Positions 1,934 to 31,148 of a stretch of DNA of 64,000 bases are shown piece by piece. Origin of the DNA: Thermoproteota archaeon (lineage in GTDB: Archaea; Korarchaeota; Korarchaeia; Korarchaeales; Korarchaeaceae); contig JAOZFI010000039.1 in the NCBI GenBank assembly GCA_027491395.1, forward strand, positions 9,147-73,146. The letters are read 5' to 3'. Numbering within the stretch: position 1 is the stretch's first letter; each line of letters opens with the position of its first letter. A model generated the notes under the pieces. The model did no database searches and was not told where the DNA came from. It saw nothing but the letters and a program-made list of their open reading frames with translations. Both the position numbers and the translations under genes were made by a program.

Positions 1934-3601
1934 ATGAGCGGAAAGGACTGGGGTATAGCGATAGTTCTACTTATTGTAGGCCTACTGATAGGCTATTTCG
2001 CAGTTGGACCGGGCAAGACGATCACCACCACCGTCACACAGACATCTGTCAAAACCGTGACGGTCACGCAAACAGCGGGCGCCCCTCCACCCAAGACCAC
2101 GACAACCCAGACCACGCCGCCCAAGAAATACGCTGACACCATAGTGATAGGAGTGACCGATAAGGTTTCCGACCTAGATCCGGCCAATGCATATGACTTC
2201 TATACTTGGGAGGTGTTCAACAACATAGGGGAGGGTCCGTTCAAGTACAAGCCAGGAACCACTGAGCTGATTAAGGGAATAATAGAGGACTACGAGGTCC
2301 AGGAAGGAGGTAAGGTCTACATACTGAAGCTCAGGAAGAATCTGAAATTCGCAGACGGGACTCCCTGCACCGCCAAGGACCTGAAGTGGTCTATAGATAG
2401 GGTGGCTAGGATAGAGGGAGACCCCGCGTGGTTCGTTCTCGACTTCGTCAACAAGACAGAAGTAATCGACGACTATACTCTAAAGATAGTGCTGAACCAG
2501 CCCGTGGCCTTCTATCCAGCGGTGCTGGCCGTCCCCACCTACTTCCCCATACCACCGGACAAGTATCCTGCCGATGAGATTTCTTCCGACAACACCGCTG
2601 GCAGCGTCGGTCCCTACAAGATAACCAAGTGGGTCAGGGATCAGGTCCTTATACTGGAGGCCAACCCCTATTACTACGGAGAGAAGCCCAAGACTCCCAA
2701 GGTTATAGTCAAGTTCTACAAGGACGCCACCACCCTCAGGCTGGCGCTGGAGAGCGGTGAGATAGACATAGCTTGGAGGACCCTAAACCCCACTGATATA
2801 AAGGACCTCATGAAGAAGCCCGGCATCCAGGTGATAGAGGGTAAGGGCTCCTTCATAAGGTACATCGTGTTCAACACGAAGATAAAGCCCTTCGACAACA
2901 AGAAGGTCAGACAGGCCCTTGCCGCCGCCCTCGACAGGAAGGCCATAGCCGAGAGGGTCTTCTTGGGCACAGTGGATCCTCTCTACAGCCTCGTTCCCAT
3001 GGGCATGTGGAGCCACATAGATGCTTTCAAGGAGAAGTACGGGGAGGCCAACATAGAGCTGGCCAAGAAGCTTCTCAAGGAGGCTGGCTACTCCGAGTCC
3101 AACAAGCTCAAGGTTGAGCTGTGGTACACGCCTTCCCACTACGGCGATACTGAGGCCGATGTCGCTGCTCTGATAAAGGAGGCCTGGGAGAAGACCGGAA
3201 TGGTCGAGGTGACCGTGAAGAGCGCCGAGTGGAGCACCTATCTGGAGCTCACTAGGAAGGGCCAGCTACCTGTGACCCTCTACGGCTGGTATCCCGACTA
3301 CATAGATCCCGACAACTACCTGTTCCCGTTCCTCCACACCGGATCCAACAGGTGGCTCGGTGAGCCGTACAGCAACCCCGATCTTGACAAGATACTGGAG
3401 AAGGCCCAAGTATCCCTAGACCAGAAGGAGAGGGAGCAGCTGTACAAGCAGGCCCAGCAGATATTGGCTGAGGATGCTCCTATAGTGCCCATATTCCAGG
3501 GCAAACTGTATGTGGCCGCCAAGAATAACGTGCACGGTATAGTGCTCGACCCGATAATGCTTCTCAGGTACTACCTGATCTACAAGGAAGCTGGTAGCTG
3601 A
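1934..3601 (+). CDS. dppA: Peptide ABC transporter substrate-binding protein (family 5) with N-terminal TM anchor and Thr-rich linker
   Basis: DLDPANAYD, LKFADGTPCTAKD, GPYKITKW, WYPDYIDPDNY; first gene of a dppBCDF operon. Confidence 0.92.
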   Translation: MSGKDWGIAIVLLIVGLLIGYFAVGPGKTITTTVTQTSVKTVTVTQTAGAPPPKTTTTQTTPPKKYADTIVIGVTDKVSDLDPANAYDFYTWEVFNNIGEGPFKYKPGTTELIKGIIEDYEVQEGGKVYILKLRKNLKFADGTPCTAKDLKWSIDRVARIEGDPAWFVLDFVNKTEVIDDYTLKIVLNQPVAFYPAVLAVPTYFPIPPDKYPADEISSDNTAGSVGPYKITKWVRDQVLILEANPYYYGEKPKTPKVIVKFYKDATTLRLALESGEIDIAWRTLNPTDIKDLMKKPGIQVIEGKGSFIRYIVFNTKIKPFDNKKVRQALAAALDRKAIAERVFLGTVDPLYSLVPMGMWSHIDAFKEKYGEANIELAKKLLKEAGYSESNKLKVELWYTPSHYGDTEADVAALIKEAWEKTGMVEVTVKSAEWSTYLELTRKGQLPVTLYGWYPDYIDPDNYLFPFLHTGSNRWLGEPYSNPDLDKILEKAQVSLDQKEREQLYKQAQQILAEDAPIVPIFQGKLYVAAKNNVHGIVLDPIMLLRYYLIYKEAGS

Positions 3602-3630
3602 ACCTCCCCTTTCCTTTTTATCTTTCCCGC
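3602..3630 (+). terminator. Intra-operon pyrimidine/U-tract after the binding-protein gene (candidate partial terminator)
   Basis: ACCTCCCCTTTCCTTTTTATCTTTCCCGC directly follows the stop codon. Confidence 0.5.
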
Positions 3631-3645
3631 TAGGGTGGATTCCAG

Positions 3646-4656
3646 ATGTCACTAAGGGCCTACGTGATAACTAGAATTCTTATGACGATCCCCATGATCC
3701 TCATTCTGCTGACGTTGGTCTTCCTCGTAATGAGAGTCCTCCCAGGAAATCCTGTGATAGCCATAGTCGGGATGAAGGCCTCTCCAGAGTACATAAAGAA
3801 GCTGGAGCATCAGCTGGGTCTCGATAAGCCCCTTTGGCAGCAGTACCTCGACTATTTGGGGAACCTGCTGAGAGGAGACTTGGGAAGGTCTATGATATGG
3901 GGGAAGAGGCCCGTCATCCAAGAGATAATGGACCACTTCCCCGCAACTCTTGAGCTGACGATAGGCGGCTTCTTGGTCAGCGTCCTATTGGGCTTAGCCA
4001 CAGGAATGCTTGCGGGGATAAGATCAGGTGGAAAAGTAGATGCATCCATGAGGATCTACAGCATCGTCGTGTATTCCCTCTTCATACCCCTGCTGGGAAT
4101 GATGCTTCAGCTCGTGTTCGGGGTCTGGCTCCACATGCTACCAGTAGGTGGGAGGATAGATCCGGGTATGGAACCTCCATCGATAACGGGTCTGTATGTC
4201 TTGGACTCGATCATAAGCCTGAAGATGAATAGCCTGCTCAACTCGTTGGCTCACTTGGCGCTGCCCTCACTCACCTTAGGGCTGGTCCTCTCAGGCATAT
4301 ACACTAGGTTGGTGAGATCCAGCCTGATGGAGGTGCTGGGTCAGGATTTCATAAGGGCTTGCAAGGCTAGAGGCCTCCCAGGAAGGGCCATCCTGTTCAA
4401 GCACGCGCTGAAGAACGCGCTCATCCCAATTCTCACCATGATGGGTCTTCAATTTGCTCTCTTGCTGGCCGGCGCCGTTCTCACCGAGACCACGTTTTCA
4501 TGGCCGGGAATGGGCACCTTCCTAGTCGAGAGGATAACGTATAGGGACTTCACAACCATACAGGGGGCAATAGTATTCTACGCCCTCTTCGTGGCCTTGG
4601 TCAGCCTGATCGTTGATCTGGTGTACGCATACGTCGATCCTAGGATAAGGTACTGA
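3646..4656 (+). CDS. dppB: Peptide ABC permease
   Basis: PGNP...LGLDKPLWQQY, EAA-type loop FIRACKARGL, ends DPRIRY. Confidence 0.92.
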   Translation: MSLRAYVITRILMTIPMILILLTLVFLVMRVLPGNPVIAIVGMKASPEYIKKLEHQLGLDKPLWQQYLDYLGNLLRGDLGRSMIWGKRPVIQEIMDHFPATLELTIGGFLVSVLLGLATGMLAGIRSGGKVDASMRIYSIVVYSLFIPLLGMMLQLVFGVWLHMLPVGGRIDPGMEPPSITGLYVLDSIISLKMNSLLNSLAHLALPSLTLGLVLSGIYTRLVRSSLMEVLGQDFIRACKARGLPGRAILFKHALKNALIPILTMMGLQFALLLAGAVLTETTFSWPGMGTFLVERITYRDFTTIQGAIVFYALFVALVSLIVDLVYAYVDPRIRY

Positions 4657-4662
4657 GGTGAT

Positions 4663-5523
4663 TTGATGAGAACGTTCAACCTCTCTCGCTTCCTCAGCTC
4701 GGTGAGGGATGCCGGGCTGGACGGTTACATGATGGTGGTCGGTCTGATTATAGTGCTGGCCGTTTTAGTGATGGCCGTGTTCGCCGAGTTCATAGCGCCC
4801 TACGATCCTGTCAAGACCGTGGGCATGCCCGTAACCCCTCCGTCCCCCGAATTCCCTTGGGGCACCGATACCATAGGAAGGGACGTATTTAGCCGCGTCG
4901 TCTACGGTTCTAGGACCATAATGGTGGTGATACTCATGTCCACCGCCCTGTCTATGGCGGTGGGCATACCTCTGGGCCTCATCTCAGGATATGTCGGAGG
5001 CCCACTCGACAGGGTATTCTCCCTAGTGATGGACAGCATATACGCCTTCCCTGGGCTCATACTCGCCATTGCGGTGGCTGCAATGCTCGGACCCGGCATA
5101 TACAACACGTCCATATCACTGGCCGTGGTATACATCCCCACTTACTTCAGGATGGTGAGGGGGCAGGTCCTCTCGCTGAGGGAGCAGCTCTTCGTGGAGG
5201 CAGCTAGGGCCTTGGGTGCGACTGACTGGAGGATACTCCGCAAATACATATTCCCCAACGTGTTCTTCATCATAGCGGTGGTGTTCTCCCTGAACGTGGC
5301 TGATGCCATCCTGACCGAGGCGGGTCTGAGCTTCCTAGGACTTAGCGTCCCGGCCCCAACGCCTGACTGGGGATTCGACCTGAAGAACGGCCAGAGGTAC
5401 TTCCTATCGGGCAAGTGGTGGCCCGTCGTGTTCCCAGGAACTATGATAATACTGCTGGCCTTGGGCTTCGGTCTCCTCGGTGAGGGACTCAACAGGATGC
5501 TTGGGCAGAAGGAGGTGAGATGA
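4663..5523 (+). CDS. dppC: Peptide ABC permease
   Basis: GTDTIGRDVFSRVVYG, FVEAARALGA, EAGLSFLGL, PDWG. Confidence 0.92.
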   Translation: MMRTFNLSRFLSSVRDAGLDGYMMVVGLIIVLAVLVMAVFAEFIAPYDPVKTVGMPVTPPSPEFPWGTDTIGRDVFSRVVYGSRTIMVVILMSTALSMAVGIPLGLISGYVGGPLDRVFSLVMDSIYAFPGLILAIAVAAMLGPGIYNTSISLAVVYIPTYFRMVRGQVLSLREQLFVEAARALGATDWRILRKYIFPNVFFIIAVVFSLNVADAILTEAGLSFLGLSVPAPTPDWGFDLKNGQRYFLSGKWWPVVFPGTMIILLALGFGLLGEGLNRMLGQKEVR

Positions 5524-6474
5524 GTGCTCTTGGAGATAGAGGACCTCCATGTCTACTACTTCACCAAGAGGGGCGTGGTCCGGGCGGTCGAGGGGGTCTC
5601 CTTCGAACTCGACAGGGCCGAGATACTGGGGATAGTGGGTGAGTCGGGAAGCGGGAAGAGCACGCTCGGACTGGCGATAATGAACCTAGTCCCCTCCCCA
5701 GGGAAGATAGTTAGAGGGAGCATCAGGCTGGACGGGAAGGACCTGACCAAGATGAGCGAGAAGGAGCTAAGGGATATCAGGGGCAAGGAGATAGCTATGG
5801 TCTTTCAGGATCCAATGACCTCCTTGGACCCCCTTATGAGGATAGGCGATCAAATAGTGGAGACTATCTTGGCCCACGAGGATGTGAGCAAGGAGGAAGC
5901 CAAGAGGAGAGCCCTTGAACTACTGGAGGAGGTGGGGATCTCCAGGGATAGGTTCAACGACTATCCCCATCAGCTCAGTGGAGGGATGAGGCAGAGGGTG
6001 ATGATAGCAATGGCCATCTCCCTGAACCCCAAGCTGATAATAGCTGATGAGCCCACTACGGCCCTCGACGTCATAGTGCAGGATCAGATAATGGAGTTAT
6101 TCTCCAAGTTGAGGGACGAGTTCGGCGTGGCGGTAATCCTAATATCCCACGATCTAGCTCTAGAGTTGGAGGTATCTGACAAGATAGGGGTGATGTACGC
6201 CGGGTGGCTCATGGAGCTCTCGAAGTCGGAGGAGCTAGCTAAGAAACCCCTGAACCCATACGCTAGGGAGCTGCTAAAGGCAATACCGAATGTGGAACTT
6301 GAGGAGCAGGAGCTCGTGTCCATCCCTGGGTCCCCACCAGATCTCCACGATCCTCCAAAGGGATGTCGGTTCCACCCTAGGTGCCCTGATGCGATGCCTA
6401 TCTGCTTCAAGGAGGAACCACCCACCAAATCGATTGACGGGAGGCTCGTGAAGTGCTGGCTGTACGGAGGGTGA
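5524..6474 (+). CDS. dppD: Peptide ABC ATPase
   Basis: GESGSGKS, LSGGMRQR, ADEPTTALD, C-terminal GCRFHPRC. Confidence 0.93.
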   Translation: MLLEIEDLHVYYFTKRGVVRAVEGVSFELDRAEILGIVGESGSGKSTLGLAIMNLVPSPGKIVRGSIRLDGKDLTKMSEKELRDIRGKEIAMVFQDPMTSLDPLMRIGDQIVETILAHEDVSKEEAKRRALELLEEVGISRDRFNDYPHQLSGGMRQRVMIAMAISLNPKLIIADEPTTALDVIVQDQIMELFSKLRDEFGVAVILISHDLALELEVSDKIGVMYAGWLMELSKSEELAKKPLNPYARELLKAIPNVELEEQELVSIPGSPPDLHDPPKGCRFHPRCPDAMPICFKEEPPTKSIDGRLVKCWLYGG

Positions 6475-6478
6475 TCGC

Positions 6479-7456
6479 ATGCTGCTAAAGGTGGAGAATC
6501 TGAAGAAGTATTTCCCGGTCGCTAAGACCTTCATAGAGCGGCTCCTCACGAGGGAAGAGAGGTACGTCAGGGCGGTGGACGGGATAAGCTTTCACATAGA
6601 GGAGGGAGAGGTCTTCTCACTAGTCGGGGAGTCGGGAAGCGGGAAGACCACCACCGGCAAAGTGGTGCTGAGGTTGATAGAGCCCACCTCCGGGAGGGTC
6701 ATCTTCCAGGGGAGAGACATAACCTCCTTGGGCAAGAAGGAGCTCCGACTGATGAGGAGGCACATGCAGATAATATATCAGGACCCATACGCGTCCCTCA
6801 ACCCTAGGATGAGGGTCGGAGAGGCCATAATGGATCCCCTGCTCATCCACAAGATAGCTGAGGGGAGAGAGGCCAAGGAAATGGTGCTGGAGATGCTCGA
6901 GAAGGTGGGACTCACGCCCCCGGAGACGTTCTTTAACTCCTATCCAGCCTACCTCAGCGGGGGACAGAGGCAGCGTGTCGCCATAGCTAGGGCCATGATC
7001 ACCAGACCCAAACTGGTGGTTGCTGATGAGCCAGTCAGCATGATCGACGTCTCACTGAGGGCTTCTATCTTGGATCTGATGATGGATCTCAGGAAGGAAT
7101 TCGGCGTCGCCTACCTCTTCATAACCCACGATTTGGCCGTAGCCAAGTACATCTCTGACAGGATAGCCATAATGTACCTTGGCAAGATAGTCGAGCTAGG
7201 AAGGACGAAGGTCCTATTCAAGAACCCCCTGCACCCCTACACCAAGGCTCTGCTGAGCGCCATACCCGTCCCTACCCCGGGCAAGAGGAAAGAGAGGCTG
7301 AGACTGAAGGGTGAGATCCCTTCAGCTATAGACATCCCTCCTGGATGCAGATTCCACCCGAGATGTCCCATGAGCTTCGAACCGTGCAATAAGGAGGAAC
7401 CCGAGCTCATGGAGGTGGAGCCGGGTCACTTCGTGGCCTGTCACCTGCACACGTAG
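6479..7456 (+). CDS. dppF: Peptide ABC ATPase
   Basis: [38 protein letters not shown]. Confidence 0.93.
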   Translation: MLLKVENLKKYFPVAKTFIERLLTREERYVRAVDGISFHIEEGEVFSLVGESGSGKTTTGKVVLRLIEPTSGRVIFQGRDITSLGKKELRLMRRHMQIIYQDPYASLNPRMRVGEAIMDPLLIHKIAEGREAKEMVLEMLEKVGLTPPETFFNSYPAYLSGGQRQRVAIARAMITRPKLVVADEPVSMIDVSLRASILDLMMDLRKEFGVAYLFITHDLAVAKYISDRIAIMYLGKIVELGRTKVLFKNPLHPYTKALLSAIPVPTPGKRKERLRLKGEIPSAIDIPPGCRFHPRCPMSFEPCNKEEPELMEVEPGHFVACHLHT

Positions 7457-11022: not shown

Positions 11023-12726
11023 ATGAGTGGGAAAGATTGGATAGTCGTGATAGTCCTCCTGATCGTGGGGCTCCTTATAGGGTATTTTGCCGCGGGCCCT
11101 GGTAAGACAACCACTGTCACCGTGACACAGACCTCTGTCAAGACCGTGACCGTGACCCAGACTGCTGGCGCCCCTCCAGCTCCCACCACGACTAAGACGA
11201 CCACTACCCAACCCAAGGCCCAGATGAAGACCCCCGCTGATACCCTGATAATAGCTATGGATACCAGCGATGCGGTCTCTATGGATCCGGCTAGGGCTTA
11301 TGAGTTCACCTCATGCTTCGTTGTCAACCAGCTCTATGATAAGCTTGTGGATTTCGAGCTTCCTGATCTGGTCAATGTTAAGCCTGAGGTCGCTGAGAAG
11401 TGGGAAGTCAGCGAAGATGGCAAGGTTTGGACCTTCCATATAAGGAAGGGTATTAAGTTCGCTAGCGGTAATCCCCTCACCGCCGATGATGTCGTTTACT
11501 CCCTCCAGAGGGTAATTAAGCTTAAGCAGACCGCTTCTTGGGTTCTTACCCAGTTCGTCTCCACTCCCGAGCAGATAGAGAAGATCGATGACTACACCGT
11601 CAAGATAACCTTAGATAAGCCAGTAGCTCCGAGCTTCTTCCTCGCTACCCTGACGTTCACGACTTCCGCAGTCGTAGATAAGCAGGTGGTCGAGGCCCAT
11701 GCGAAGAACGGGGACATGGGAAGCGATTGGATGACCGATCACAGCGCCGGTAGCGGTCCGTTCGTCCTAGAGAAGTGGGATAGGGAAGCCGAAATAGTCC
11801 TTAAGGCCAATCCATACTACTGGAAGCCAGGTCAGCCAGCTGTGAAGAAGGTGATCATAAAGCATGTTCCCGAGCCCACGGATCAGCTCCTCCTGATAAA
11901 GAAGGGGGATGTTGACATAGCAACTGACTTGACTGCGGAGCAGGTCAAACAGGTTGAGGGTACACCCGGAATAAACGTGATAAAGGTGGAGAGGACCCAC
12001 ATAGTCTACTTGGGAATGAACGTTGCCGTGAAGCCGTTGGACAAGGAAGAGGTTAGGGATGCAATCAGGTACTGTATAGATTATGACAGCATAATAAACG
12101 ACATCCTGCTTGGAGCAGCGATAAAGTGGCAGACTGTCATTCCAAAGGGTCTGCTCGGAGCGAACCCGAAGACACCCTACAAGAAGGATGTGGCTAAGGC
12201 CAAGGAACTCTTAGCTAAGGCCGGTGTGCCCAATGGATTCACCATAGAGCTGACCACGCCGCCGACCTATCCTCAGATAGACATAGCAACCAAGATACAG
12301 GCTGACCTGGCCGAGTGCGGCATCAAGGTGAAGATCGTGCAGATGACCCAGTCCGAGATGTACGAGAAGTACAGAAAGCAAGGTCTCCAGCTTGTGCTCG
12401 CAGGTTGGGGGTCCGACTATCCGGATCCGGACAACAACGCCAAGGCTTTCGGTGACTACAGGGTGAAACAGCTCGCTTGGAGGAACTCTTGGTACGATGA
12501 CCATGCCGCCGATCTCGCCGAGAAAGCGGCCGTGGAGTTCGACAACAATAAGAGGAAGCAGATGTACCTCGAGCTCACTGACTACATACTCGACCACGGA
12601 CCCTACGCGATCCTCTACCAGACCCTCGCCCAGCACGTAGCGAGGGACTACGTGAAGAATTATCTGCCCGATCCGACGTTCTTCCTTGAGGACCTCTCCA
12701 AGGTGTCAAAGGCCGGAGGGAGCTGA
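11023..12726 (+). CDS. dppA: Peptide ABC substrate-binding protein (family 5, DdpA-like subgroup) with TM anchor and Thr-rich linker
   Basis: MDPARAYE, FASGNPLTADDVVYS, HSAGSGPF, WGSDYPDPDN. Resembles E. coli DdpA by recall. Confidence 0.92.
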   Translation: MSGKDWIVVIVLLIVGLLIGYFAAGPGKTTTVTVTQTSVKTVTVTQTAGAPPAPTTTKTTTTQPKAQMKTPADTLIIAMDTSDAVSMDPARAYEFTSCFVVNQLYDKLVDFELPDLVNVKPEVAEKWEVSEDGKVWTFHIRKGIKFASGNPLTADDVVYSLQRVIKLKQTASWVLTQFVSTPEQIEKIDDYTVKITLDKPVAPSFFLATLTFTTSAVVDKQVVEAHAKNGDMGSDWMTDHSAGSGPFVLEKWDREAEIVLKANPYYWKPGQPAVKKVIIKHVPEPTDQLLLIKKGDVDIATDLTAEQVKQVEGTPGINVIKVERTHIVYLGMNVAVKPLDKEEVRDAIRYCIDYDSIINDILLGAAIKWQTVIPKGLLGANPKTPYKKDVAKAKELLAKAGVPNGFTIELTTPPTYPQIDIATKIQADLAECGIKVKIVQMTQSEMYEKYRKQGLQLVLAGWGSDYPDPDNNAKAFGDYRVKQLAWRNSWYDDHAADLAEKAAVEFDNNKRKQMYLELTDYILDHGPYAILYQTLAQHVARDYVKNYLPDPTFFLEDLSKVSKAGGS

Positions 12727-12762: not shown

Positions 12763-13776
12763 TTGGACCTTAAGACGTACATATTGAGGCGTCTGGCCCT
12801 AATGTTGTTCGTCCTATTCGGAATAATTGTGATTACGTTTATCGTGTCTCATGTGATTCCTGCTGATCCTATAGGGGCCATTCTGGGACCCCAAGCTCCT
12901 CCCGAGCTTGTAGAGAAGGTTAGAAGGGAGTGGGGATTCGATAAGCCCCTTCCCGAGCAGTTCGTTGACTACATGGTGAACTTACTCCACGGTAACTTAG
13001 GCAAGTCCATAAGAACGAATAAGCCGGTGGCAGAGGACCTCATGAAGTTCTTTCCCGCGACGATCGAACTGGCAACGGCGGCGATGATAGTTGCCATAGT
13101 GATAGGGATACCCCTCGGTATAATCTCGGCCGTTAAGAAGGACAAGTGGCCCGACCACATCTCCAGAATATTTGCTCTAATGGGGGTGAGCATGCCCGTC
13201 TTCTGGCTGGGTCTCATCCTGCTCTTCGTCCTCTACTACCAGCTGGGAATATTTCCAGGGCCTGGTAGGCTGGATCCAGGGATAGAGGCTCCACCCAGAA
13301 TAACTGGCATTTTAACACTCGATAGCTTGATTACCGGGAACTTCGAGGCGTTCACGAATGCCGTATGGCATCTTATACTCCCCTCGTTCGTCTTGGGCTA
13401 CTACGCCTCTGCATCAATCACTAGGATCACTAGGACATCCTTACTCGAGGTCATGACCCAGGACTTCATAAGGACGGCCAGAGCTAAGGGCCTGCCCGAG
13501 AGGGTCGTGCTGTTCAGGCACGCCCTGAGGAACGCGCTCATACCCACTACCACCGTCATAGGGATGGCTTACGGAAGCCTGCTGGAAGGTGCGATACTCA
13601 CGGAGACCATATTCGCTTGGCCCGGATTGGGGAGGTACTCAACAGGTGCTTTCCTGTCTGTGGATTTCTTGGCGGTTATGGGCTCCACCTTACTGATAGC
13701 GGTGATCTACTCAGTGGCCAACTTGGTTGTGGACATACTCTACGCATTCCTCGATCCGAGGATAAGGTATGCCTGA
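12763..13776 (+). CDS. dppB: Peptide ABC permease (DdpB-like); TTG start
   Basis: ITFIVSHVIPADP, FFPATIELA, FIRTARAKGL, DPRIRY. Confidence 0.92.
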   Translation: MDLKTYILRRLALMLFVLFGIIVITFIVSHVIPADPIGAILGPQAPPELVEKVRREWGFDKPLPEQFVDYMVNLLHGNLGKSIRTNKPVAEDLMKFFPATIELATAAMIVAIVIGIPLGIISAVKKDKWPDHISRIFALMGVSMPVFWLGLILLFVLYYQLGIFPGPGRLDPGIEAPPRITGILTLDSLITGNFEAFTNAVWHLILPSFVLGYYASASITRITRTSLLEVMTQDFIRTARAKGLPERVVLFRHALRNALIPTTTVIGMAYGSLLEGAILTETIFAWPGLGRYSTGAFLSVDFLAVMGSTLLIAVIYSVANLVVDILYAFLDPRIRYA

Positions 13777-13788
13777 GGAGGTGCTCTC

Positions 13789-14673
13789 ATGAACTTAAGA
13801 GAGAAGGTCAGGGGCCTGATGGAGTATTTCAGATCCGAGGACTTTAAAATAACTCTAATCTTGGTGAAGAAGAGCCCTCTCACGGTCTTGGGACTCGCTC
13901 TGACCATATTCTTGGTGCTGGTGGCGATTTTCGCACCCTTCATAGCACCCTACGATCCCATAAAGCAGGACCTCAAGAATAGGCTTCAGCCCCCTAGCTG
14001 GGAGCACCCTTTCGGCACCGATCAGCTCGGAAGGGACATATTCAGCAGGGTGGTCTGGGGATCAAGGATCTCCCTGTTTATAGCCCTTATAGTTGTCGCT
14101 ATCTCATTCACCGTCGGAACTACCATAGGCATAATCTCCGGCTACTTCGGGGGTAAGGTTGACGAGGTTCTTATGAGGATCACGGACATGTTCATGGCAT
14201 TCCCCAGACTGGTACTCGCCTTGGCCGTGGCTGCCGCTCTAGGACCTGGGCTCTTCAACACCATGCTCGCCATAGCCTTCGTCTCTTGGGTCTACTACGC
14301 CAGGCTGGCTAGGGCTAGCACCCTCCAGATAAGGGAAGAGGTGTATATAGAGGCGGCTAGGGCGATAGGGGCCAGCGACAGGAGGATACTCTTCCTTCAT
14401 GTCCTCCCGGTAGTCATCGCGCCGGTAGTAGTTCAAGCCACCCTTGACATGGGCGGGACCATCCTCACCGCAGCCGGCCTCGGTTTCCTTGGACTGGGTG
14501 TCCAGCCCCCCACTCCGGAGTGGGGAGTCATGGTAAGTGAGGGGAGGAGGTTCATAACTGAACAGTGGTGGGTCTCCACATTCCCCGGTTTCGCGATACT
14601 CTTGGCAACGCTGGGCTTCAACCTGCTGGGCGACGGGATAAACGATATACTGAATGTCAGGGCGAGGAGGTGA
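13789..14673 (+). CDS. dppC: Peptide ABC permease
   Basis: HPFGTDQLGRDIFSRV, YIEAARAIGA, AAGLGFLGLG, PEWG. Confidence 0.92.
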   Translation: MNLREKVRGLMEYFRSEDFKITLILVKKSPLTVLGLALTIFLVLVAIFAPFIAPYDPIKQDLKNRLQPPSWEHPFGTDQLGRDIFSRVVWGSRISLFIALIVVAISFTVGTTIGIISGYFGGKVDEVLMRITDMFMAFPRLVLALAVAAALGPGLFNTMLAIAFVSWVYYARLARASTLQIREEVYIEAARAIGASDRRILFLHVLPVVIAPVVVQATLDMGGTILTAAGLGFLGLGVQPPTPEWGVMVSEGRRFITEQWWVSTFPGFAILLATLGFNLLGDGINDILNVRARR

Positions 14674-14677
14674 TTGA

Positions 14678-15667
14678 GTGAGCGACGACGGGAAAGGAGA
14701 GAATCTCTTGGAGATCAGGGATCTGTACGTTCAATTCCACACTCTGAGAGGCATAGTCAAGGCCATAGATGGCGTCAACTTGGAGGTGGGACATGGCGAG
14801 GTCTTGGGTCTTGTGGGGGAGACTGGCAGCGGCAAGACGGTGACGGGCCTCAGTATACTCAGGTTACTGGAGCAAAACGCCGAGATCACCGGAGGGGAGA
14901 TAATATTTCAGGGGAGAGACCTGCTCAAGCTGCCCCTCAAGGAGATCCTGAAGATAAGGGGGAGAGATATCTCAATGATTTTCCAAGAGCCGAAGGCCGC
15001 CCTGAACCCGGTCATGCAGGTGGGTGATCAGGTGGCCGAGTCCTTCCTAGTGCACGAGGAGATCTCCAAGAAGGAGGCGAGGGAGAGAGTCCTAGGGATA
15101 TTCAGGAGGGTGGGCCTCCCTGATCCCGAGAGGGTGTACAAGAGCTATCCCCACGAGCTCAGCGGGGGAATGGCTCAGAGGGTCGTGATATCCATGGCGC
15201 TCGCCCTGAAGCCGAAGCTGCTCATAGCTGACGAGCCCACCTCCGCCCTGGATGTGACAATACAGGCCCAGATAATGGACCTCTTTCGCGAGCTGATCAA
15301 CGAGATGGGAACCAGCGTCATCTACATAACACACGACATGGCCCTAGCTGCTGAGATAAGCGATAGGATCGCGGTGATGTATGCCGGCAGAATAGTGGAG
15401 GTGGCCGACACTGAAACGATATTCGAGAATCCCCTACATCCTTACACCCAGGGACTGCTGAAATCCATACCCAAACCGGGATATAGGGGGAAGCTCTTCT
15501 CGATGGAGGGGGAGATACCGCCCTTGATAAATTCACCCCCTGGCTGCAGGTTCCATCCCCGCTGCCCTAAGAGATTCGAACCGTGCGACAAGGAGGTGCC
15601 CAAGCTGATGGAGGTAGAACCAAGGCATAAGGTAGCCTGCTTCCTGTTCGGAGGTGCGTCCAAATGA
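14678..15667 (+). CDS. dppD: Peptide ABC ATPase
   Basis: [33 protein letters not shown]. Confidence 0.93.
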
Positions 15668-16659
15668 TGCTGGAGGTTCAGGATCTCAAGAAGTACTTCC
15701 CCGTACGCGGTGGCGTGATGATGAGGGTGATCGGTCATGTGAAAGCGGTGGACGGGGTCTCCATATCCATAGAGAAGGGAGAAGTCTTCGGCCTGGTGGG
15801 CGAGTCCGGGAGCGGTAAGACGACCTTGGGCAGGACGGTCCTCAAGCTGACCAAGCCCACCGGTGGGAGGATAATCTTCGATGGAAGGGACATAACCGAT
15901 CTCTCGGGCAAGGATCTCATTCCCCTGAGGAGGGAGATGCAGATAGTCTTCCAGGACCCGTACAAGGCCTTGCATCCGAGGAAGAGGGTGAAGGACATAG
16001 TTGGTGAACCCCTGATCATACACGAGGGGACCAGCGATATGGAAGTGAGGAGGAGGGTAGCGGAGATGCTCAAGCTGGTGGGGCTGAATGTGGAGCACAT
16101 GGACAGGTACCCGCACGAGTTCTCGGGAGGGCAGAGGCAGAGGATAGTCATAGCTAGGGCCCTGATCCTGAGGCCCAAGTTCATGGTGCTCGACGAACCT
16201 ACCTCTGCCTTGGATGTGAGCGTTCAGGCTAAGATACTCAACCTGCTGAGCGATCTCAAGGAACAGTTTGACCTCACCTTCCTACTGATAAGCCACAACT
16301 TGGCGGTGGTGCAGCATATGAGCAACAGGATCGGCGTGATGTACCTCGGGAAGCTCATGGAGGTAGCTTCCTCGCAGGAACTCTTCGAGAAACCGCTTCA
16401 TCCCTATACGAAGGCCCTCATATCGGCCATCCCTGTACCCGACCCTAAGCTAGCTAAGAAGAAGAGGAAGATGACCCTCAGGGGCGAGATACCGAGTCCC
16501 TTGCATCCGCCCTCCGGCTGCAGGTTCCACACTAGGTGCCCGTTCGCTAAGGAGATCTGCGAGAGGGAGGAACCACCTTTGAGGGAGGTGGAGCCAGGCC
16601 ACTGGGTGGCGTGTCACTTCTGGGATGAGTTGAGGGAGGTAGGAGTGTTAAATGCCTGA
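15664..16659 (+). CDS. dppF: Peptide ABC ATPase
   Basis: [33 protein letters not shown]. Confidence 0.93.
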
Positions 16660-23281: not shown

Positions 23282-23358
23282 TCGGTTGATCATTTTGCCA
23301 GTTGACATGGGTTTCACCGAAAACCTTTTTAAGCAATACCCCTAATGTCCGGCGGCCG

Positions 23359-25272: not shown

Positions 25273-25330
25273 TCCTCCCCCCTCCTTATTTTCCCAAACG
25301 TTTTTGATGGAATCGCCTCAGGCTAGTGGT

Positions 25331-26269
25331 ATGAGGAAAATCCTAGCCATAGCTCTAATCCCATTATTTCTGGCTCCCCTCGCCTACACCTTAGCGCAAC
25401 CCATAGCGATAGCCGAGTTACCCTTAGGATCCAAGCTTACATACAAGTTAGGGGGAGTTTACGTCGGTAACAAGACCTACGAGGTCTTGGGCTGGTCTTC
25501 CTCCCGAGGCAGGAGATGTAAACTGGTCAAAGTTAGTCTCTCCGTTAACGCCTCCGGTAGCTTCTTCTACAGGGGGATAAATTCCACTTCCGAGTTCTGC
25601 TACGACGAGAGGGGAAGACCCCTGAAAGAGGTCCTGTACATTCCACAGGAATTCAACTCGTCCTACACGAGGGTTGAGATAACCTATTGGTGGGAGGGCG
25701 AAGAGGTATTTCCTCACAGATCTTTGATAAGATTGATAGGTGAGAAAATGGAGAACTATGATGTGCTGCTCAATGAAGGACTTATGATCAAGGAATCTGG
25801 TGGAAAGACTGAGAAGTTCAGGGTAAGCAGCGAGAATCTCTCGAAGGTACTGCCTTTTGTTCCCGAGAGGCTAACGGAACCATATGTCGACCTGTCATCC
25901 ATCAGGCTGAAGGAGGGTTACGCGAGGAGGTACGGAGACTTCGAGGTGAAGGTGCTTTCTCTGGAGAATGTTCAGACCCCAGCTGGTCTGTTCCCTTGTT
26001 ATAAGGTGCTTCTCTCCGGTTGGACCGAGGACGGCCTTCCATATAACTCAACAGTTTACGTTACAGTGAAAGAACCTAGGTTCACCACCTACTATATTAC
26101 CAATATAATTGGGATAAAGCAAACTGGATACGTGGTTGAGGCCAATATCCCCGAGCCAGGGTTGAATAAGTGGATAATCTATCTCGTAATGGTATTAGTT
26201 ATGCTCGCTGTACTCGCGTTCTCACTCAAAAAGAGGAGGAAGGCGGGAGAGAAGCGAGTTACTTCTTAG
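25331..26269 (+). CDS. Exported protein with signal peptide and C-terminal TM/basic tail (DUF3108-like motif)
   Basis: MRKILAIAL signal, ENVQTPAGLFPCYKV motif, C-terminal TM followed by KKRRK. Confidence 0.65.
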   Translation: MRKILAIALIPLFLAPLAYTLAQPIAIAELPLGSKLTYKLGGVYVGNKTYEVLGWSSSRGRRCKLVKVSLSVNASGSFFYRGINSTSEFCYDERGRPLKEVLYIPQEFNSSYTRVEITYWWEGEEVFPHRSLIRLIGEKMENYDVLLNEGLMIKESGGKTEKFRVSSENLSKVLPFVPERLTEPYVDLSSIRLKEGYARRYGDFEVKVLSLENVQTPAGLFPCYKVLLSGWTEDGLPYNSTVYVTVKEPRFTTYYITNIIGIKQTGYVVEANIPEPGLNKWIIYLVMVLVMLAVLAFSLKKRRKAGEKRVTS

Positions 26270-27359
26270 AAGCTTCCTCCTCCATTTTCAGCTCCTCTCC
26301 CACATCCCACTCGCTTGATTTGGAGAGCTCTAAGGCTGGTGTCTCTACCGGACCCTCCGGTATGGCGCCCTGTGGCCTGAACATCAGGACGAGGATTATT
26401 ATCAGCCCTATTATGATATACTTCATGTAGGTCACGTCGAACTCAACCCTTATTCCCAAGAGACTCAGGAAAGACGGTGAGATGAACTGGTCCAAGGCGG
26501 TCATTATCAAGGTTCCCACGATCACTCCCTTGTTGTTGGCCATGCCACCCAGAATCACCATGGTGAGGATCAAGAAGGTTATCAGAGGCTGGAAGTCGTC
26601 AGCAACTACTCCCTGTATGTAGAAGGTCCTGAGGACACCAGCTATTGCTGCTAGGGCGCTTCCTATGATCATCACCTCTCCCCTCACCCTAGGTACCACC
26701 TTGCCTAGAGCCATCGCTGCAAGGTCATCGTCCCTTACCGATTTGAGCAGCCTTCCGAATGGAGATTTGGCCAACCTCTGCACATACACGTACGCCAGGA
26801 CGGCAAAGGCTACCACGACCACTGTGTACGCGAGGCTCCTCATGTGCACGTCCTTTATGAATGATAGAGGATTGGCTATCCCGGTGAGGCCGGTAAGGGC
26901 GCAAACGATTCCCTCCTCGTTTCTGGCTATGATTCTCCCCATGTCTCCAATGAATATGAGGGTTATCGCTAGAAAGTCCTCCTTCAGCCTCAGCGCGGGA
27001 TAGGATGCGGCATATCCGAACAAACCTCCCACGAAGGCTCCCAGCACGAGAGAGGCCACAAAGAGACCTATAGCTTCGGCTGGATGAGAGCTAAGGTACT
27101 CAGTCCTCAGTACGGATGCTTGCCCTGAACAGTATCCTGCTTTAATCCCAGCTATGTAATCAACAACTCTAGCCGTGAGGACGCCAGCCATGTAGGCTCC
27201 AACTGATATGAAGAATACGTGGCCGAAATTGGGTATCCCGCCGTAGCCGTACTCCATGTTCAAGCTTAGCGCAGCTATCAGGTAGATGGCGAACAGCACC
27301 ACGAAGGATGTGAAGATGGGTATGTACGACAATAGGAACTCTACCTGCACATCATTCAC
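26259..27359 (-). CDS. livM: Branched-chain amino acid ABC permease
   Basis: GIPNFGH, LRLKEDFLAI, SPFGRLLKSVRDD, FRPQG. Confidence 0.9.
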   Translation of the reverse strand: MNDVQVEFLLSYIPIFTSFVVLFAIYLIAALSLNMEYGYGGIPNFGHVFFISVGAYMAGVLTARVVDYIAGIKAGYCSGQASVLRTEYLSSHPAEAIGLFVASLVLGAFVGGLFGYAASYPALRLKEDFLAITLIFIGDMGRIIARNEEGIVCALTGLTGIANPLSFIKDVHMRSLAYTVVVVAFAVLAYVYVQRLAKSPFGRLLKSVRDDDLAAMALGKVVPRVRGEVMIIGSALAAIAGVLRTFYIQGVVADDFQPLITFLILTMVILGGMANNKGVIVGTLIMTALDQFISPSFLSLLGIRVEFDVTYMKYIIIGLIIILVLMFRPQGAIPEGPVETPALELSKSSEWDVGEELKMEEEASKK

Positions 27360-28281
27360 CTCCCTTGCTCATCTTCTCCTTTATCCACCCGATCACGTCG
27401 ATACCAGCGAAGCCCGTCGGCTTGAGTAGCAGGACTATGACGAGTATTACGAAGGATATCAGCGGTCTGTAGGCCGTGCTCACGTGGAAGTACGTGTTCA
27501 TGAAGGTGATGCCGAAGTTCTCGGCGAAACCGACTATCAGACCTCCTGCTATGGTCCCCCAGAAGCTGACCAGCCCTCCAAGTATGGAAGCCGCGAATAT
27601 CCTCAGCAGGGCGTACCATCCTATTTCGGGGGTTATCACGGAGTAGGCTGACCAGAGTCCGCCAGCTATACCGGTTATCCCACCCGCGATGAACCACATG
27701 AGCCTCCTGAGCGTGTATATCTTAACTCCAGAGACCCTAGCAAGGTCCTCATTGTCGGCCATGGCCCTCAGAGCCTTCCCTGGCTTGGTGTAGTGGAACA
27801 TGAGGTGCAGGAGCACGACGCTCGCTATGGTGATGGGGAACACCCATAGGTGTATGGTTGTTATGCCCGCTCTACCGAACCTCCCTATCAGCTGGACATT
27901 CGCCTTCGCTTGTACGGTAATCACCGCATTGAGATCCGCGTAAATGAATAGGATGTACCTGACCAGCAGACCTATGCCAATACTGGCGACTAAGAGGAAG
28001 AGAGGCTTCGACCCCCTCTTGATCATAGGTTTGAAGACTCCCTCGTCCATCGCAACCGCAAGCAAGGCTGAGGCGAAGAAGGCAGCTATCAGAGACTCTC
28101 CCAGTCCGTAACCCATCCAGTTCACGAGTAGAGCTGTGACGTAACCTCCGACAGTGACCAGCTCGGCGTGAGCGAAATTCGCTATCTTCGTGACCGAGAA
28201 GGACATGGTGAGGCCCAAGGCCATGAGGGTGTAGAGACTCCCTAGTGTCAGGGAGTTCATCAAAGGAACAGATAAATCCAT
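27352..28281 (-). CDS. livH: Branched-chain amino acid ABC permease
   Basis: LMALGLT, ANFAHAE, GKALRAMADN, LLKPTG. Confidence 0.9.
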   Translation of the reverse strand: MDLSVPLMNSLTLGSLYTLMALGLTMSFSVTKIANFAHAELVTVGGYVTALLVNWMGYGLGESLIAAFFASALLAVAMDEGVFKPMIKRGSKPLFLLVASIGIGLLVRYILFIYADLNAVITVQAKANVQLIGRFGRAGITTIHLWVFPITIASVVLLHLMFHYTKPGKALRAMADNEDLARVSGVKIYTLRRLMWFIAGGITGIAGGLWSAYSVITPEIGWYALLRIFAASILGGLVSFWGTIAGGLIVGFAENFGITFMNTYFHVSTAYRPLISFVILVIVLLLKPTGFAGIDVIGWIKEKMSKGGE

Positions 28282-28296
28282 AACATCACCTCCAAA

Positions 28297-29022
28297 TCAC
28301 TTTTTACCTAGGAAAGCCTCCACGAACTTCTCGTCCGCTAGAAGATCTTTCCCTGGGCCTTTCATCACTATCCTACCGCTGGAGAAAACGTAGCCAATGT
28401 CGCAGAAGCTCAGCGCCCTCTTTGCATGTTGTTCCACTAGTATGACGGTGACGCCAGTGTCGACTATGTCCCTTATCTTCATGAAGATCTGAGTCACCAC
28501 CTTAGGGGCTAATGCCGCGGCTGGCTCATCCAAGAGAAGAAGGGTAGGTCTACCCATTAAAGCCATAGCCATGGCAAGCATCTGCCTCTCTCCACCGCTC
28601 AGGGAGCCAGCTTTCTGCTTCTGCCTTTCTCTAAGGATGGGGAATATGTTGAGGATCTCCTCCATATCTTTCTTTATCTCCTCCTTATCCTCTCTAGCGT
28701 AAGCGCCCATCTCCAAGTTCTCCTTAACAGTCAGGTTCGGAAATACGTTGTTCACCTGGAACACGAACCCCAATCCTTTCCTGGCTCTTACCTCAGGGGG
28801 AAGCTTCGTGATCTCCTCTCCGTTGAAGATCACGCTCCCATTGAAGACCCTAGTTAGGCCGAAGAGGGTCTTGAGGAAGGTAGATTTCCCGGACCCATTA
28901 GGTCCTACTATGGCCGTGATCTTGCCCTTTTCCGCTTGAAAATTTACATCTTGAATAATTACTGCCTTCCCATATCCCGCAGTTAAGTCTCGAGTCTCCA
29001 CAATATACTCAACCATCCTCAC
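28297..29022 (-). CDS. livF: Branched-chain amino acid ABC ATPase
   Basis: GPNGSGKST, LTVKENLEMG, LSGGERQML, LDEP. Confidence 0.9.
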   Translation of the reverse strand: MRMVEYIVETRDLTAGYGKAVIIQDVNFQAEKGKITAIVGPNGSGKSTFLKTLFGLTRVFNGSVIFNGEEITKLPPEVRARKGLGFVFQVNNVFPNLTVKENLEMGAYAREDKEEIKKDMEEILNIFPILRERQKQKAGSLSGGERQMLAMAMALMGRPTLLLLDEPAAALAPKVVTQIFMKIRDIVDTGVTVILVEQHAKRALSFCDIGYVFSSGRIVMKGPGKDLLADEKFVEAFLGKK

Positions 29023-29777
29023 TCACCCAAATAGGCGTCTATCACCCTCGGGTCCTTGTAAACACCCTCAGGATCTCCATCGTATATTAGCTCTCCGTAA
29101 TTCATTACTAGAACCCTCTCTACGTAGTCGAACAGGATATCCAATCTATGTTCAATGATCAGGAAGGTCAGCCCGTACTCATCTCTTATTCTGACTATGT
29201 GACTGAAGATCTCCCTAGCCAGCTTAGGAGCTACACCAGCCGCGGGCTCATCTAATAGAAGAACCCTAGGCTCGGACATCATGGACCTAGTGATCTCAAC
29301 GAGCTTCATCTGTCCACCACTCAGCTCTGTGGCCCAATTGTTCCTCACCCTAGAGAGACCAAACTCCTTTATCGTCTTCAAGGATTTCCTTGCGTACTCT
29401 AACTCTTGATCCCTCCAGAGATGGTGCAGAGGGGCAATTAGCGGATTCTCACCCCTCTGATTTCTGTGGGCTACCATAACATTTTCGACAACGAGCATCT
29501 TTTCGAATAACCTCGGTACTTGAAAGCTCCTAACTACCCCTTTATGGTAGATGTCCCATGGATCCAGCCCTGTTATGTCCTCTCCTCTGAAGAAAATCTT
29601 TCCCCTGTTAGGCTTGTAGACCCCCGATATCACGTTGATAAGCGTGGTTTTCCCGGACCCATTAGGTCCAATCAGACCTACTATCTGACCCTCATTCAAA
29701 TCAAAAGTTACGCCGTCAACGGCTCTGATACCACCAAAATACTTGGCGACATCTCTAACCTGTAGGATAGCAGTCAT
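29019..29777 (-). CDS. livG: Branched-chain amino acid ABC ATPase
   Basis: FGGIRAVD, GPNGSGKTT, RSFQ, LDEPAAG, VIDAYLGE. Confidence 0.9.
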   Translation of the reverse strand: MTAILQVRDVAKYFGGIRAVDGVTFDLNEGQIVGLIGPNGSGKTTLINVISGVYKPNRGKIFFRGEDITGLDPWDIYHKGVVRSFQVPRLFEKMLVVENVMVAHRNQRGENPLIAPLHHLWRDQELEYARKSLKTIKEFGLSRVRNNWATELSGGQMKLVEITRSMMSEPRVLLLDEPAAGVAPKLAREIFSHIVRIRDEYGLTFLIIEHRLDILFDYVERVLVMNYGELIYDGDPEGVYKDPRVIDAYLGE

Positions 29778-29788
29778 ATATTATCACC

Positions 29789-29810
29789 AAAAAGGGGAGA
29801 GGGAGGAAGT
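29789..29810 (-). terminator. Intra-operon pyrimidine/U-tract after the Liv binding-protein gene
   Basis: Minus strand reads TGA-ACTTCCTCCCTCTCCCCTTTTT. Confidence 0.5.
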
Positions 29811-31148
29811 TCAGGGCTGCTCGTAGAAGGTCGTGGCCTTAGTAGTTCCATCATATTTGCCGATGGTCTTGAAGGTCCACTGACCGTCCACTATCCTTGG
29901 GGCCACGATGTCGTAGATAGGTACGGCAGCATCGCCGTACTCATCGAGCAGCTTCCATCCGGTCACGCCGTAGAAGTGCTTGCTTATGTAAGGAACTAGC
30001 TTCTGGAACACCCTGCCATCGTACTTGTGAGCCACGAGCACGGTCAGGCCAGCTACCCAGGCAGCATCATAAGCATAGAACGCGTAGGTGCTGGCCTCGG
30101 GGGACTCACCGAACCTCTTGGTGTACTTCTCTATGAACTCCTTCACTAATGGGTTTTCCTTGGATCCCACAGCAGGCGTGGTGGCCATGAAGTGCACGCT
30201 CTGCAGGAACTTGGCTATGTCCTCCTTGGCCTTGGGAGGCAGGAAGGTAGCCCTCTTCATGGAGTCAGGTCCGAACCACCTTACCTTGCTAAGCGTAGGG
30301 TCGAGCCTTGCAGCCTCGAGAATCTTTATACCGTCATCGTCGAAGGCTATTATGACAACGCCGGTCTCAGCATCGGCTCCGAAGTCGGCCACAGCAGCGC
30401 TAGCCCTCTCCACATCGGCGGAGAGGTCGGGCTGAGTGTGGTCATATATTATCTTAACGACCTGACCTCCGAGCTTCTTGAAGTTCTCCTCTATCAGGTC
30501 GGCGAGACCCTTGCCGTAGTCATCGCTCCTAGCCATTATAACAAGCTTCTTTATTCCCTGATCCCATATTATCTTGGCCAGAGCGGGACCTTGGTACTTG
30601 TCAGGGGACGGCATCCTGAAGCAGTAATCGTTCTTGACCATAGCAGCAGTTCCGGTGCTGCTCGGACTTATAGCGGTCATGTGGTGGGACTTGGCGTAGT
30701 CAAGTATGGCCTTACACTCGCTGGTAGCGAGCGGGCCAACGACCATCTGCACGCCAGCGGATGCGAGCTTCTCGTAGGCGGCAATAGCACCCTCAGCAGA
30801 GGTCTTGGTGTCCTCGTGGATGTATTTGAGTCTGACGGGAGAGCCAACCTCCTCTAGCATAGCGTTTATCTCCTCTATGGCTAGGATTGCCGCGTTTCTC
30901 CTCCTAGGACCGTCCACCGCGTAACCTCCAGTGACGGCGATGGCTAATCCGATTACATACTCCTTCTGCTCAGGCGCTGCAGCAGTTCCCGTCACGGTGA
31001 CTGTCTTGGTGACAGTCTGCGCACCGGCACCGCCCACGGTGACGGTAGTGGTGGACACGCTCACCTTACCAGGGGCGGCCACATAGCCCAACAGGATTCC
31101 TATGATGAATAAGACAATAGAAACTACTCCCCACGCTTTCGAACTCAT
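29811..31148 (-). CDS. livJ: Branched-chain amino acid ABC substrate-binding protein (LivJ/K-like) with TM anchor and Thr-rich linker
   Basis: AILAIEEIN, VVGPLATSE, ISPSST, FRMPSPDKYQG, DDYGKG, YAYDA. Confidence 0.88.
   Translation of the reverse strand: MSSKAWGVVSIVLFIIGILLGYVAAPGKVSVSTTTVTVGGAGAQTVTKTVTVTGTAAAPEQKEYVIGLAIAVTGGYAVDGPRRRNAAILAIEEINAMLEEVGSPVRLKYIHEDTKTSAEGAIAAYEKLASAGVQMVVGPLATSECKAILDYAKSHHMTAISPSSTGTAAMVKNDYCFRMPSPDKYQGPALAKIIWDQGIKKLVIMARSDDYGKGLADLIEENFKKLGGQVVKIIYDHTQPDLSADVERASAAVADFGADAETGVVIIAFDDDGIKILEAARLDPTLSKVRWFGPDSMKRATFLPPKAKEDIAKFLQSVHFMATTPAVGSKENPLVKEFIEKYTKRFGESPEASTYAFYAYDAAWVAGLTVLVAHKYDGRVFQKLVPYISKHFYGVTGWKLLDEYGDAAVPIYDIVAPRIVDGQWTFKTIGKYDGTTKATTFYEQP

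Follow-up and report, generated by a model that had tools for sequence, protein, structure and literature searches.

A common N-terminal anchor and Thr/Val stalk on binding proteins of five families in a korarchaeal lineage

Why should binding proteins of different families, and even of two different folds, begin with one and the same N-terminal segment? The question is raised by a 64-kb stretch of contig JAOZFI010000039.1 (64,000 nucleotides, hereafter the window) from an uncultured hot-spring archaeon of the Korarchaeia, known as a Korarchaeota metagenome-assembled genome (MAG), whose close relatives are labelled Candidatus Korarchaeota or Korarchaeum. Two SBP_bac_5 proteins, SBP5-A (gene A, 1934-3601, + strand) and SBP5-B (gene B, 11023-12726, +), and one Peripla_BP_6/ANF_receptor protein, Liv-A (29811-31148, -), are concerned; all three have Pfam matches above the gathering score (PF00496, PF13458) and lie in operons with permeases and ATPases. 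Protein A is encoded on JAVALX010000026.1 (GCA_032159035.1). A sequence-only reading had noticed the resemblance and proposed that a dedicated machine recognises the segment. Our results are best read as follows: archaeal binding proteins have a known kind of tether, of which the module, i.e. anchor plus stalk, is a variant specific to this lineage that was copied from gene to gene and maintained by selection.

The resemblance is strongest between A and B, where 1934-2089 and 11023-11178 both translate to MSGKDW...TAGAPP. Our codon-by-codon recount over codons 1-52 agrees with the counts originally made by hand: 46 of the 52 residues are identical, 29 of their codons differing synonymously and 17 being the same, at 74% nucleotide identity. 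Random choice, with the codon usage of 30 window genes, would leave 18.1 of these codons the same, implying that the synonymous sites are saturated. By the Nei-Gojobori method (NG86), the nonsynonymous distance (dN) of the module is 0.076 and the synonymous distance (dS) is ~3, i.e. a paralogue dN/dS of ~0.03; dS is not computable for the helix half, and short segments make it noisy. Protein-level similarity with randomised codons rules out a recent duplication or conversion in the window genome, and to that extent the original claim of neither event stands. It does not hold for the history as a whole, in which conversion or transfer has taken part, as seen from a fresh tract in another MAG and from unrelated N-termini on close orthologues (see below).

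Past residue 66-72, A and B are only 31-32% identical (36% over the full length), and their nearest relatives elsewhere are different sets of proteins, so that their placement in different subgroups is upheld. As a control for chance, residues 1-52 of A were aligned, with gaps, to 223 N-termini of module-less orthologues, which gave 30 +/- 8.7% identity, the best pair reaching 58%; the same measure yields 88% for A and B, i.e. 6.7 standard deviations above unrelated N-termini of the family. Liv-A, which begins MSSKAWGVVSIVLFIIGILLGYVAAPGK and includes TKTVTVTGTAAAP, fits the consensus that the sequence-only reading had drawn up, and a six-frame regular-expression search of the whole window finds the motif at just three places. 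The segment shared by A and B begins at the ATG and ends near codon 52; upstream of it, only the TATA-box and Shine-Dalgarno consensus are common to both. A stop codon stands directly upstream of the ATG of B and of the Liv gene, and hence the short N-terminal tail is real. A mechanical open reading frame (ORF) of 165 aa in another frame, 1639-2136(+), overlaps the start of gene A. As an explanation of the conservation it is ruled out by the free synonymous change in the A module, which excludes a second coding constraint.

Is the module confined to these paralogues? A genome scan with one genome per GTDB species found 17 module loci in six related MAGs, and a metagenome scan found 12 loci. 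According to translation and Pfam, the module is carried, in at least six related MAGs, by five families, three of them SBP_bac_5 and two Peripla_BP_6: SBP5-A (555 aa), SBP5-B (567 aa), SBP5-C (621 aa), Liv-A (445 aa) and Liv-B (461 aa). All real carriers in both scans are binding proteins. Searched with [VI]G[LA][LV][IV]GYFA, the metagenomes returned the same MAG contigs, Korarchaeum orthologues of B, one SBP_bac_1 protein and two bacterial transmembrane (TM) proteins, RNase Y and a TPR protein, which match by chance through IGLLVGYFA-like strings. The motif therefore extends beyond the window, and the objection that a profile would hit nothing but the window paralogues falls away.

An exhaustive profile search of 1.84 billion representatives gave 9 matches. 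Two are the true module, and the others are archaeal binding proteins whose anchors have GY[FY]A plus TVT in a looser form, implying that there is no wide family at that stringency. A word-indexed search with a 3-sequence N-terminal profile gave one match in 350 candidates, from an index that is poor for short, low-complexity queries. Pfam and NCBIfam gave nothing at cut-off for the 80-residue N-termini, i.e. no curated model matches the segment. The kind of element is already known, namely an N-terminal hydrophobic tether with a Ser/Thr-rich linker and N-termini common to the binding proteins of one archaeon. What is undescribed in the libraries and literature searched is the sequence solution, the fact that it is confined to a korarchaeal clade and occurs in five families of two folds, and the absence of a canonical class III site.

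Alignment of 32 distinct modules yields the motif M-x-x-[KR]-[DAT]-[WLF], hydrophobic helix, (G)P[GS][KQR], Thr/Val stalk. The tail comprises five residues, the third of them always small (G/A/S/T/V), and the helix 18-19 residues in the general motif. Within the helix, L12, G16, G20 and Y21 are invariant and A23 is nearly so; aromatic residues (W6, Y21) lie at both helix interfaces. The Liv helix is longer by one residue and is followed by one residue fewer before PGK, which keeps the position of K28. A test for helical periodicity in the variability of the TM segment points towards a conserved Gly face, but is not significant (p 0.09-0.58). The stalk spans 35-45 residues, with Thr and Val alternating in its first half and a fast-evolving, T/P/K-rich second half; the core K-T-V-T-V-T is common to all five families, and the string AGAPP is found in A, B and C. 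At the DNA level, the stalk has only trivial 6- and 12-nt micro-repeats in the way of tandem repeats. The AlphaFold2 (AF2) model of full-length A shows residues 3-23 as a helix and is confident in the binding domain from ~66 onwards. Residues 24-62 in between have a local confidence (pLDDT) of 36-56 without secondary structure, and no ordered stalk hairpin is found in this model, which is a monomer and does not reach oligomers.

To what extent is the module constrained? Between MAG orthologues it is 83-98% identical with a dN/dS (omega) of 0.03-0.07, compared with 93-99% and 0.005-0.018 for the mature domains. It evolves 3-6x faster than the mature domain between orthologues, and is thus not hyper-conserved in itself; the second stalk half changes faster than the rest. 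Hand counts between the window genome and the MAG JALWYH give 89-96% identity for the binding-protein anchors, ~42% for the anchor of a DUF4349 protein, ~35% for the signal peptide of NfeD and 75% for the TM segment of stomatin. The module is better conserved than these three control N-terminal hydrophobic segments of the same genome pair, and so the objection that it would be no more constrained than other TM anchors falls away as well. Neighbouring genes have a dS of 1.4-1.6, close to the 1.17 of B, and inheritance is therefore vertical. We conclude that the module is under purifying selection, ordinary but fairly strong. The mature domains of A and B, 94-99% identical from MAG to MAG, are themselves unusually constrained, their neighbours being looser at similar dS (omega 0.07-0.09 for NfeD, 55-91% identity for DUF4349).

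Comparison with more distant orthologues gives a different picture. Orthologues of A across Archaea have 56-82% mature identity and all begin ..YADTIVIGVTDKVSDLDPANAYDF, but their N-termini are other ones; orthologues of B (45-91% mature identity) carry class-III-like, lipobox or other anchors. Class-III-like KG|IS[KR] signals occur on orthologues such as the one beginning MRRRSGISRAAVG... in another Korarchaeota MAG, lipoboxes occur on those of Thermococcales and Archaeoglobales, and other TM anchors occur elsewhere. Even a protein whose mature domain is 91% identical to B (P0134) has an unrelated N-terminus, as do further close orthologues (P0019-22). This turnover between lineages, seen for both A and B, bears out the premise that anchors of archaeal binding proteins diverge fast. 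Genes seem to swap their N-terminal tethers at a rate well above that at which the binding domains evolve.

For the anchor of B (residues 1-28), hand counts give 86%, 82% and 75% identity to the paralogues A, C and Liv-B, versus 61% to its own Korarchaeum orthologue; the Korarchaeum orthologues of B (75-78%) have kept the helix (..IVGAVIGYFAAGPGK) but not the stalk. Judging from these identities, the anchor tracks lineage rather than gene, so that it must have moved between genes. Moreover, the split of A and B precedes the divergence of archaeal orders, long before Korarchaeia, and therefore their common N-terminus cannot be vertical. A second case may be that of P0023 (L037-L039) versus P0140, P0145 and P0142, A and B orthologues of another uncultured lineage with a different common N-terminus, M[RE]GVSK[AT]VWA...KP.PAP, of class-III-like look. 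The set of P0023, P0140 and P0145 suggests that paralogues of one lineage commonly share one module, and is only suggestive because these proteins come from different assemblies or runs.

A trace of such movement is visible in JALWYH (L014, L007; contig JALWYH010000096.1). Here the A and B modules have 83% nucleotide identity, exceeding over the module that of either gene to its own orthologues. Within the first 160 nt of the genes, which were compared, nt 1-20 and 106-157 are near-identical, and 29 of the 44 identical residues have the same codon, versus 16 expected. This looks like a recent gene-conversion tract between the neighbouring A and B genes. Genes have received the module by transplantation or have been homogenised for it; in the window lineage, enough time has passed since for the codons to become random, and conversion still happens occasionally.

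Might such conversion, repeated between neighbouring binding-protein genes, have homogenised the 5' ends by itself, without selection? Purely neutral concerted evolution would account for the JALWYH tract and for a module that tracks lineage and not gene, but we judge it highly improbable, since the saturated synonymous sites contradict conversion alone: the codons of A and B are randomised (17 against 18.1 expected), and yet 46/52 residues are the same, with dN/dS at ~0.03. In addition, residues typical of one family are retained from MAG to MAG (V24 in A, A24 in B), and the Liv genes, 15-65 kb from A and B, differ from them by indels.

In the window, the A operon stands between AFOR and the B operon; a stomatin/NfeD pair at 8577-10783 also lies between AFOR and B. 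We compared window 1934-10783 with loci L032, L042 and L041. In Korarchaeum sp. (L032, GCA_038873135.1), AFOR is directly followed by the B operon, an aminotransferase, PhoU and an Orn/DAP decarboxylase, with no A operon there, and in GCA_027491985.1 the A operon is found in another, unrelated context. From this absence and this displacement, the A operon appears to have moved.

What kind of signal does the module represent? Its hydrophobic stretch W6-V24, the AF2 helix at 3-23 and the lack of a signal peptidase I (SPase I; small-x-small) site after it are those of an uncleaved signal anchor; on inspection, the post-helix residues GYFA[AV]GPGK place F or Y at -3 of any candidate SPase I site. 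In the first 60 residues there is no lipobox L-[AS]-[GA]-C and no Cys at all, nor are there an RR pair of the twin-arginine (Tat) type or an AxA-type site. The PGF-CTERM/archaeosortase motif is C-terminal, whereas PGK is N-terminal here, and no such C-terminal motif was found: the Liv protein ends ...TTFYEQP without a C-terminal helix, the alignment of A and B to residues 554/565 has no hydrophobic tail, and AF2 models none in A. We lean modestly towards an uncleaved signal anchor with a flexible stalk, a korarchaeal counterpart of the bindosome-type N-termini of Sulfolobus without a canonical cleavage site.

On this reading, the helix would be an uncleaved anchor of the Sec/signal recognition particle (SRP) pathway with the N-terminus inside, and (G)PGK would break the helix at the outer surface. 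On its stalk, the binding domain would be mobile beneath the S-layer and able to contact its own permease; the Ser/Thr linkers of Sulfolobus have been described as tethering under the S-layer (PMC2797410). The module would further be a lineage-specific cassette, put on binding-protein genes of different families by 5'-end recombination or gene conversion. It may have spread mostly before this genus radiated, with purifying selection holding it in each gene since. For a binding-protein gene that arrives or diverges, taking over a resident, working 5' end would be the simplest adaptation to the envelope. The cause of selection could be membrane and envelope compatibility alone, or a common partner packing against the GxxxG face.

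The class III cleavage pattern (K/R at -2, G/A(S) at -1, a small hydrophobic residue at +1, immediately ahead of the hydrophobic stretch) reportedly goes back to FlaFind, described by Szabo in 2007. The korarchaeal (Kor-type) modules depart from it, having K-D-W, K-A-W, K-T-W or R-D-[LWF] before or at the start of the helix. In a regular-expression screen of 240 homologues, many orthologues of other lineages are class-III-like, and none of the screened Kor-type modules has the [KR][GAS]-hydrophobic pattern. Positions -2, -1 and +1 are important for class III cleavage (PMC3387779). The architecture is nevertheless of class III type: a short charged leader, ~20 hydrophobic residues and a Ser/Thr-rich linker, as described for bindosome proteins (PMC2797410). 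An N-terminus common to different binding proteins of one genome, here in five families per lineage, is likewise a bindosome-type feature.

The module could accordingly be a non-canonical, type IV pilin-like (class III) signal, from which a prepilin-type peptidase removes the tail so that the helices co-assemble in a bindosome-like manner, as in Sulfolobus; the helix would then be conserved from one binding protein to the next because a single assembly machine has to accept each of them. There are precedents for a pilin-like, bindosome-type system (PMC3047682, PMC4187195), and binding proteins with class III signals are reported to be widespread in Archaea (preprint 10.64898/2026.04.22.720090). 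The likeness in architecture and in the common N-terminus (PMC2797410; PMC4187195; bioRxiv 10.64898/2026.04.22.720090) speaks for it, as do the canonical-looking KG|IS[KR] sites on A orthologues of other Thermoproteota and of another Korarchaeota MAG. PibD accepts different cleavage sites and leaders 3-4 residues long (PMC4187195), type IV pilus ATPases of clade 4 occur in TACK archaea, Korarchaea among them (PMC4858521), and both the always small residue 3 and the conserved charged tail residues, which a plain anchor leaves unexplained, would fit. But the helix is preceded by D, A or T and opens with W, L or F, and the GPG breaker right after 19 hydrophobic residues is suggestive of a TM anchor and not of the alpha-1 helix of a pilin. 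The 64-kb window has no prepilin peptidase (PibD/FlaK), no Bas-like ATPase/platform pair and no other peptidase or assembly genes of this kind. We hold this explanation to be rather unlikely.

Alternatively, the GYxAxPGK junction or the TVT stalk might itself be a signal for sorting or modification, with an enzyme or partner dedicated to it; an O-glycosyltransferase could act on the Thr ladder, for instance, or the TVT strand could be bound by a docking partner in the S-layer. The first stalk half is indeed far better conserved, its 24 codons being almost invariant in A/B versus 5-40% orthologue change in the second part. The K-T-V-T-V-T core recurs in all five families, and the strict alternation of Thr and Val would, as read from the sequence, produce an all-Thr face. 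Ser/Thr stretches next to the anchor are glycosylated in oligopeptide-binding proteins of Sulfolobus and Aeropyrum (PMC3387779). Against this, Korarchaeum orthologues of B retain the helix and lose the SVKTVTVTQTAGAPP stalk, the stalk is without secondary structure in the AF2 model, and no transferase is encoded nearby in the window. The stalk half also has the lowest dS and includes the JALWYH conversion tract, which argues that part of the stalk identity is recent copying. A signal of this sort seems unlikely to us.

Several observations weigh against the signal-anchor reading. The charge balance across the helix is weak, ~+1 on each side (the tail has K/R plus D, net ~+1 with the amino terminus, and the outer flank has K28, being more positive in Liv-B), and the tail has a conserved Asp, a combination seldom expected of a plain signal anchor. 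Although many codons have changed synonymously, A and B have exactly the same TQTSVKTVTVTQTAGAPP, whereas a floppy linker would do with less specificity. The invariant L12-G16-G20 hints at specific helix packing. Finally, the restriction to binding proteins rests on pattern scans rather than on full MAG proteomes. Because the acidic tail residue, the weak charge bias, the LxxxGxxxGY stripe and the exact conservation of TQTSVKTVTVTQTAGAPP are not fully explained, the pilin-like and the stalk-signal readings both stay alive.

A bolder reading is that this genus assembles or clusters its binding proteins via an undescribed N-terminal module (K-D-W tail, LxxxGxxxGY helix, TVT strand) read by a dedicated partner such as a divergent prepilin-type peptidase with an assembly platform, or a common membrane or S-layer scaffold. 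We regard it as rather unlikely. If true, a bindosome-like system would have been missed by motif-based class III screens, and the module would have moved between transporter genes as a cassette. The dedicated machine of the sequence-only reading (a peptidase, transferase or docking partner) did not emerge from the analysis: none was identified, the window encodes none that is recognisable, the stalk has low confidence and no secondary structure in the AF2 model, and the class III motif is missing. A machine may still be hypothesised by analogy, with the Sulfolobus bindosome as a precedent.

Among known systems, the closest are GlcS, AraS and TreS of Sulfolobus/Saccharolobus (bindosome, Bas), which have a short charged tail, a hydrophobic stretch of ~20 residues, a Ser/Thr-rich linker, an N-terminus conserved among different binding proteins of the genome, and genes in ABC-transporter operons (PMC2797410, PMC3047682, PMC4187195, bioRxiv 10.64898/2026.04.22.720090). 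The module differs in having no [KR]-[GA] site before the helix, a tail of just 5 residues, a helix that ends in invariant GxxxGY followed by (G)PGK, and a linker of alternating Thr and Val rather than of Ser/Thr. The plain signal-anchor tethers of Archaea and Gram-positive bacteria resemble it in the apparently uncleaved segment, the flexible linker and the binding domain outside; a lipobox, a Tat motif and an SPase I site are missing from both. Unlike them, the module is 60-90% identical across five families, with L, G, G and Y invariant and the acidic tail residue conserved.

Two further parallels are looser. YSIRK-G/S signal peptides of staphylococci and streptococci are a motif in an export signal common to unrelated surface proteins of one lineage, and are thought to route them to a particular site; as cleaved bacterial signal peptides with another motif, envelope and protein class, they are an analogy only. 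Glycophorin A has the helix-packing motif LIxxGVxxGVxxT, to which the module helix LLxxGLxxGYxxA is similar, with L12, G16 and G20 invariant; GxxxG is, however, common in TM helices, the chance bacterial matches carry similar strings, and the periodicity test is not significant.

The coordinates of anchors, stalks, mature domains and operon partners are collected in Table 1. Close to the Liv operon lies a DUF4349 membrane protein, 31566-32570(-), whose listed TTG start is probably too far upstream, the likely start being MNKRYLVAVLIFLTLIVAGYIYYP. Its TM anchor also ends AGY..YYP, and a Gly-Tyr helix end is therefore not unique to binding proteins in this organism. Four other proteins are predicted to be exported with ordinary, cleavable-type signal peptides: 33794-35482(-), 53567-55177(+), 61253-62857(-) and 25304-26269(+). 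They comprise a disaggregatase-repeat-like protein, two without Pfam matches and a CBM96-like one, implying that standard signals are used for non-binding proteins in this organism. Two adjacent radical-SAM-type ORFs of 362 aa and 656 aa (the match of the latter being weak) occupy 22193-25272(+), adjoined by an enolase-superfamily (MR_MLE) gene at 20974-22095(-).

Table 1. Positions in the window of the N-terminal modules, the mature domains and the operon partners of the three binding proteins
Feature	Coordinates	Strand	Composition and basis
SBP5-A anchor	1934..2017	+	Tail MSGKD 1934-1948; TM helix W6-V24 1949-2005; helix breaker GPGK 2006-2017 (translation, AF2)
SBP5-A stalk	2018..2128	+	Conserved TVT part, codons 29-52 (2018-2089, TITTTVTQTSVKTVTVTQTAGAPP); fast-evolving T/P/K part, codons 53-65 (2090-2128)
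SBP5-A mature domain	2129..3601	+	PF00496, Pfam E 6.5e-94; begins YADTIVIGVTDKVSDLDPANAYDF
A operon partners	3646..7456	+	Permeases 3646-4656, 4663-5523; ATPases 5524-6474, 6479-7456 (ORFs; Pfam families of identical locus L001)
SBP5-B anchor	11023..11106	+	Tail MSGKD; TM helix W6-A24 11038-11094; GPGK 11095-11106
SBP5-B stalk	11107..11232	+	TTTVTVTQTSVKTVTVTQTAGAPP (11107-11178), then variable T/P/K part
SBP5-B mature domain	11233..12726	+	PF00496, Pfam E 3.7e-98
B operon partners	12763..16659	+	Two permeases and two ATPases (ORFs; syntenic loci L032, L034, L042)
Liv-type binding protein, anchor	31065..31148	-	Tail MSSKA; TM helix W6-A25 31074-31133; PGK 31065-31073
Liv-type binding protein, stalk	30963..31064	-	VSVSTTTVTVGGAGAQTVTKTVTVTGTAAAPEQK
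Liv-type binding protein, mature domain	29811..30962	-	PF13458 / PF01094, Pfam E 6.4e-33
Liv operon partners	26259..29777	-	ATPases 29019-29777, 28297-29022; permeases 27352-28281, 26259-27359 (ORFs, N-terminal translations; comparable operon in L035)

How binding proteins are kept close to their transporters in archaea without an outer membrane has been worked out in detail for the Sulfolobus bindosome only. The module suggests that in another deep lineage all binding proteins have a standard N-terminus, based on a sequence solution of its own, and the fast exchange of tethers is a concrete reason why screens for canonical class III motifs under-count such systems. For annotation, the module marks the true start codons and the set of binding proteins of these MAGs, and its tail, its GxxxGY face and its KTVTVT core are defined targets for experiments.

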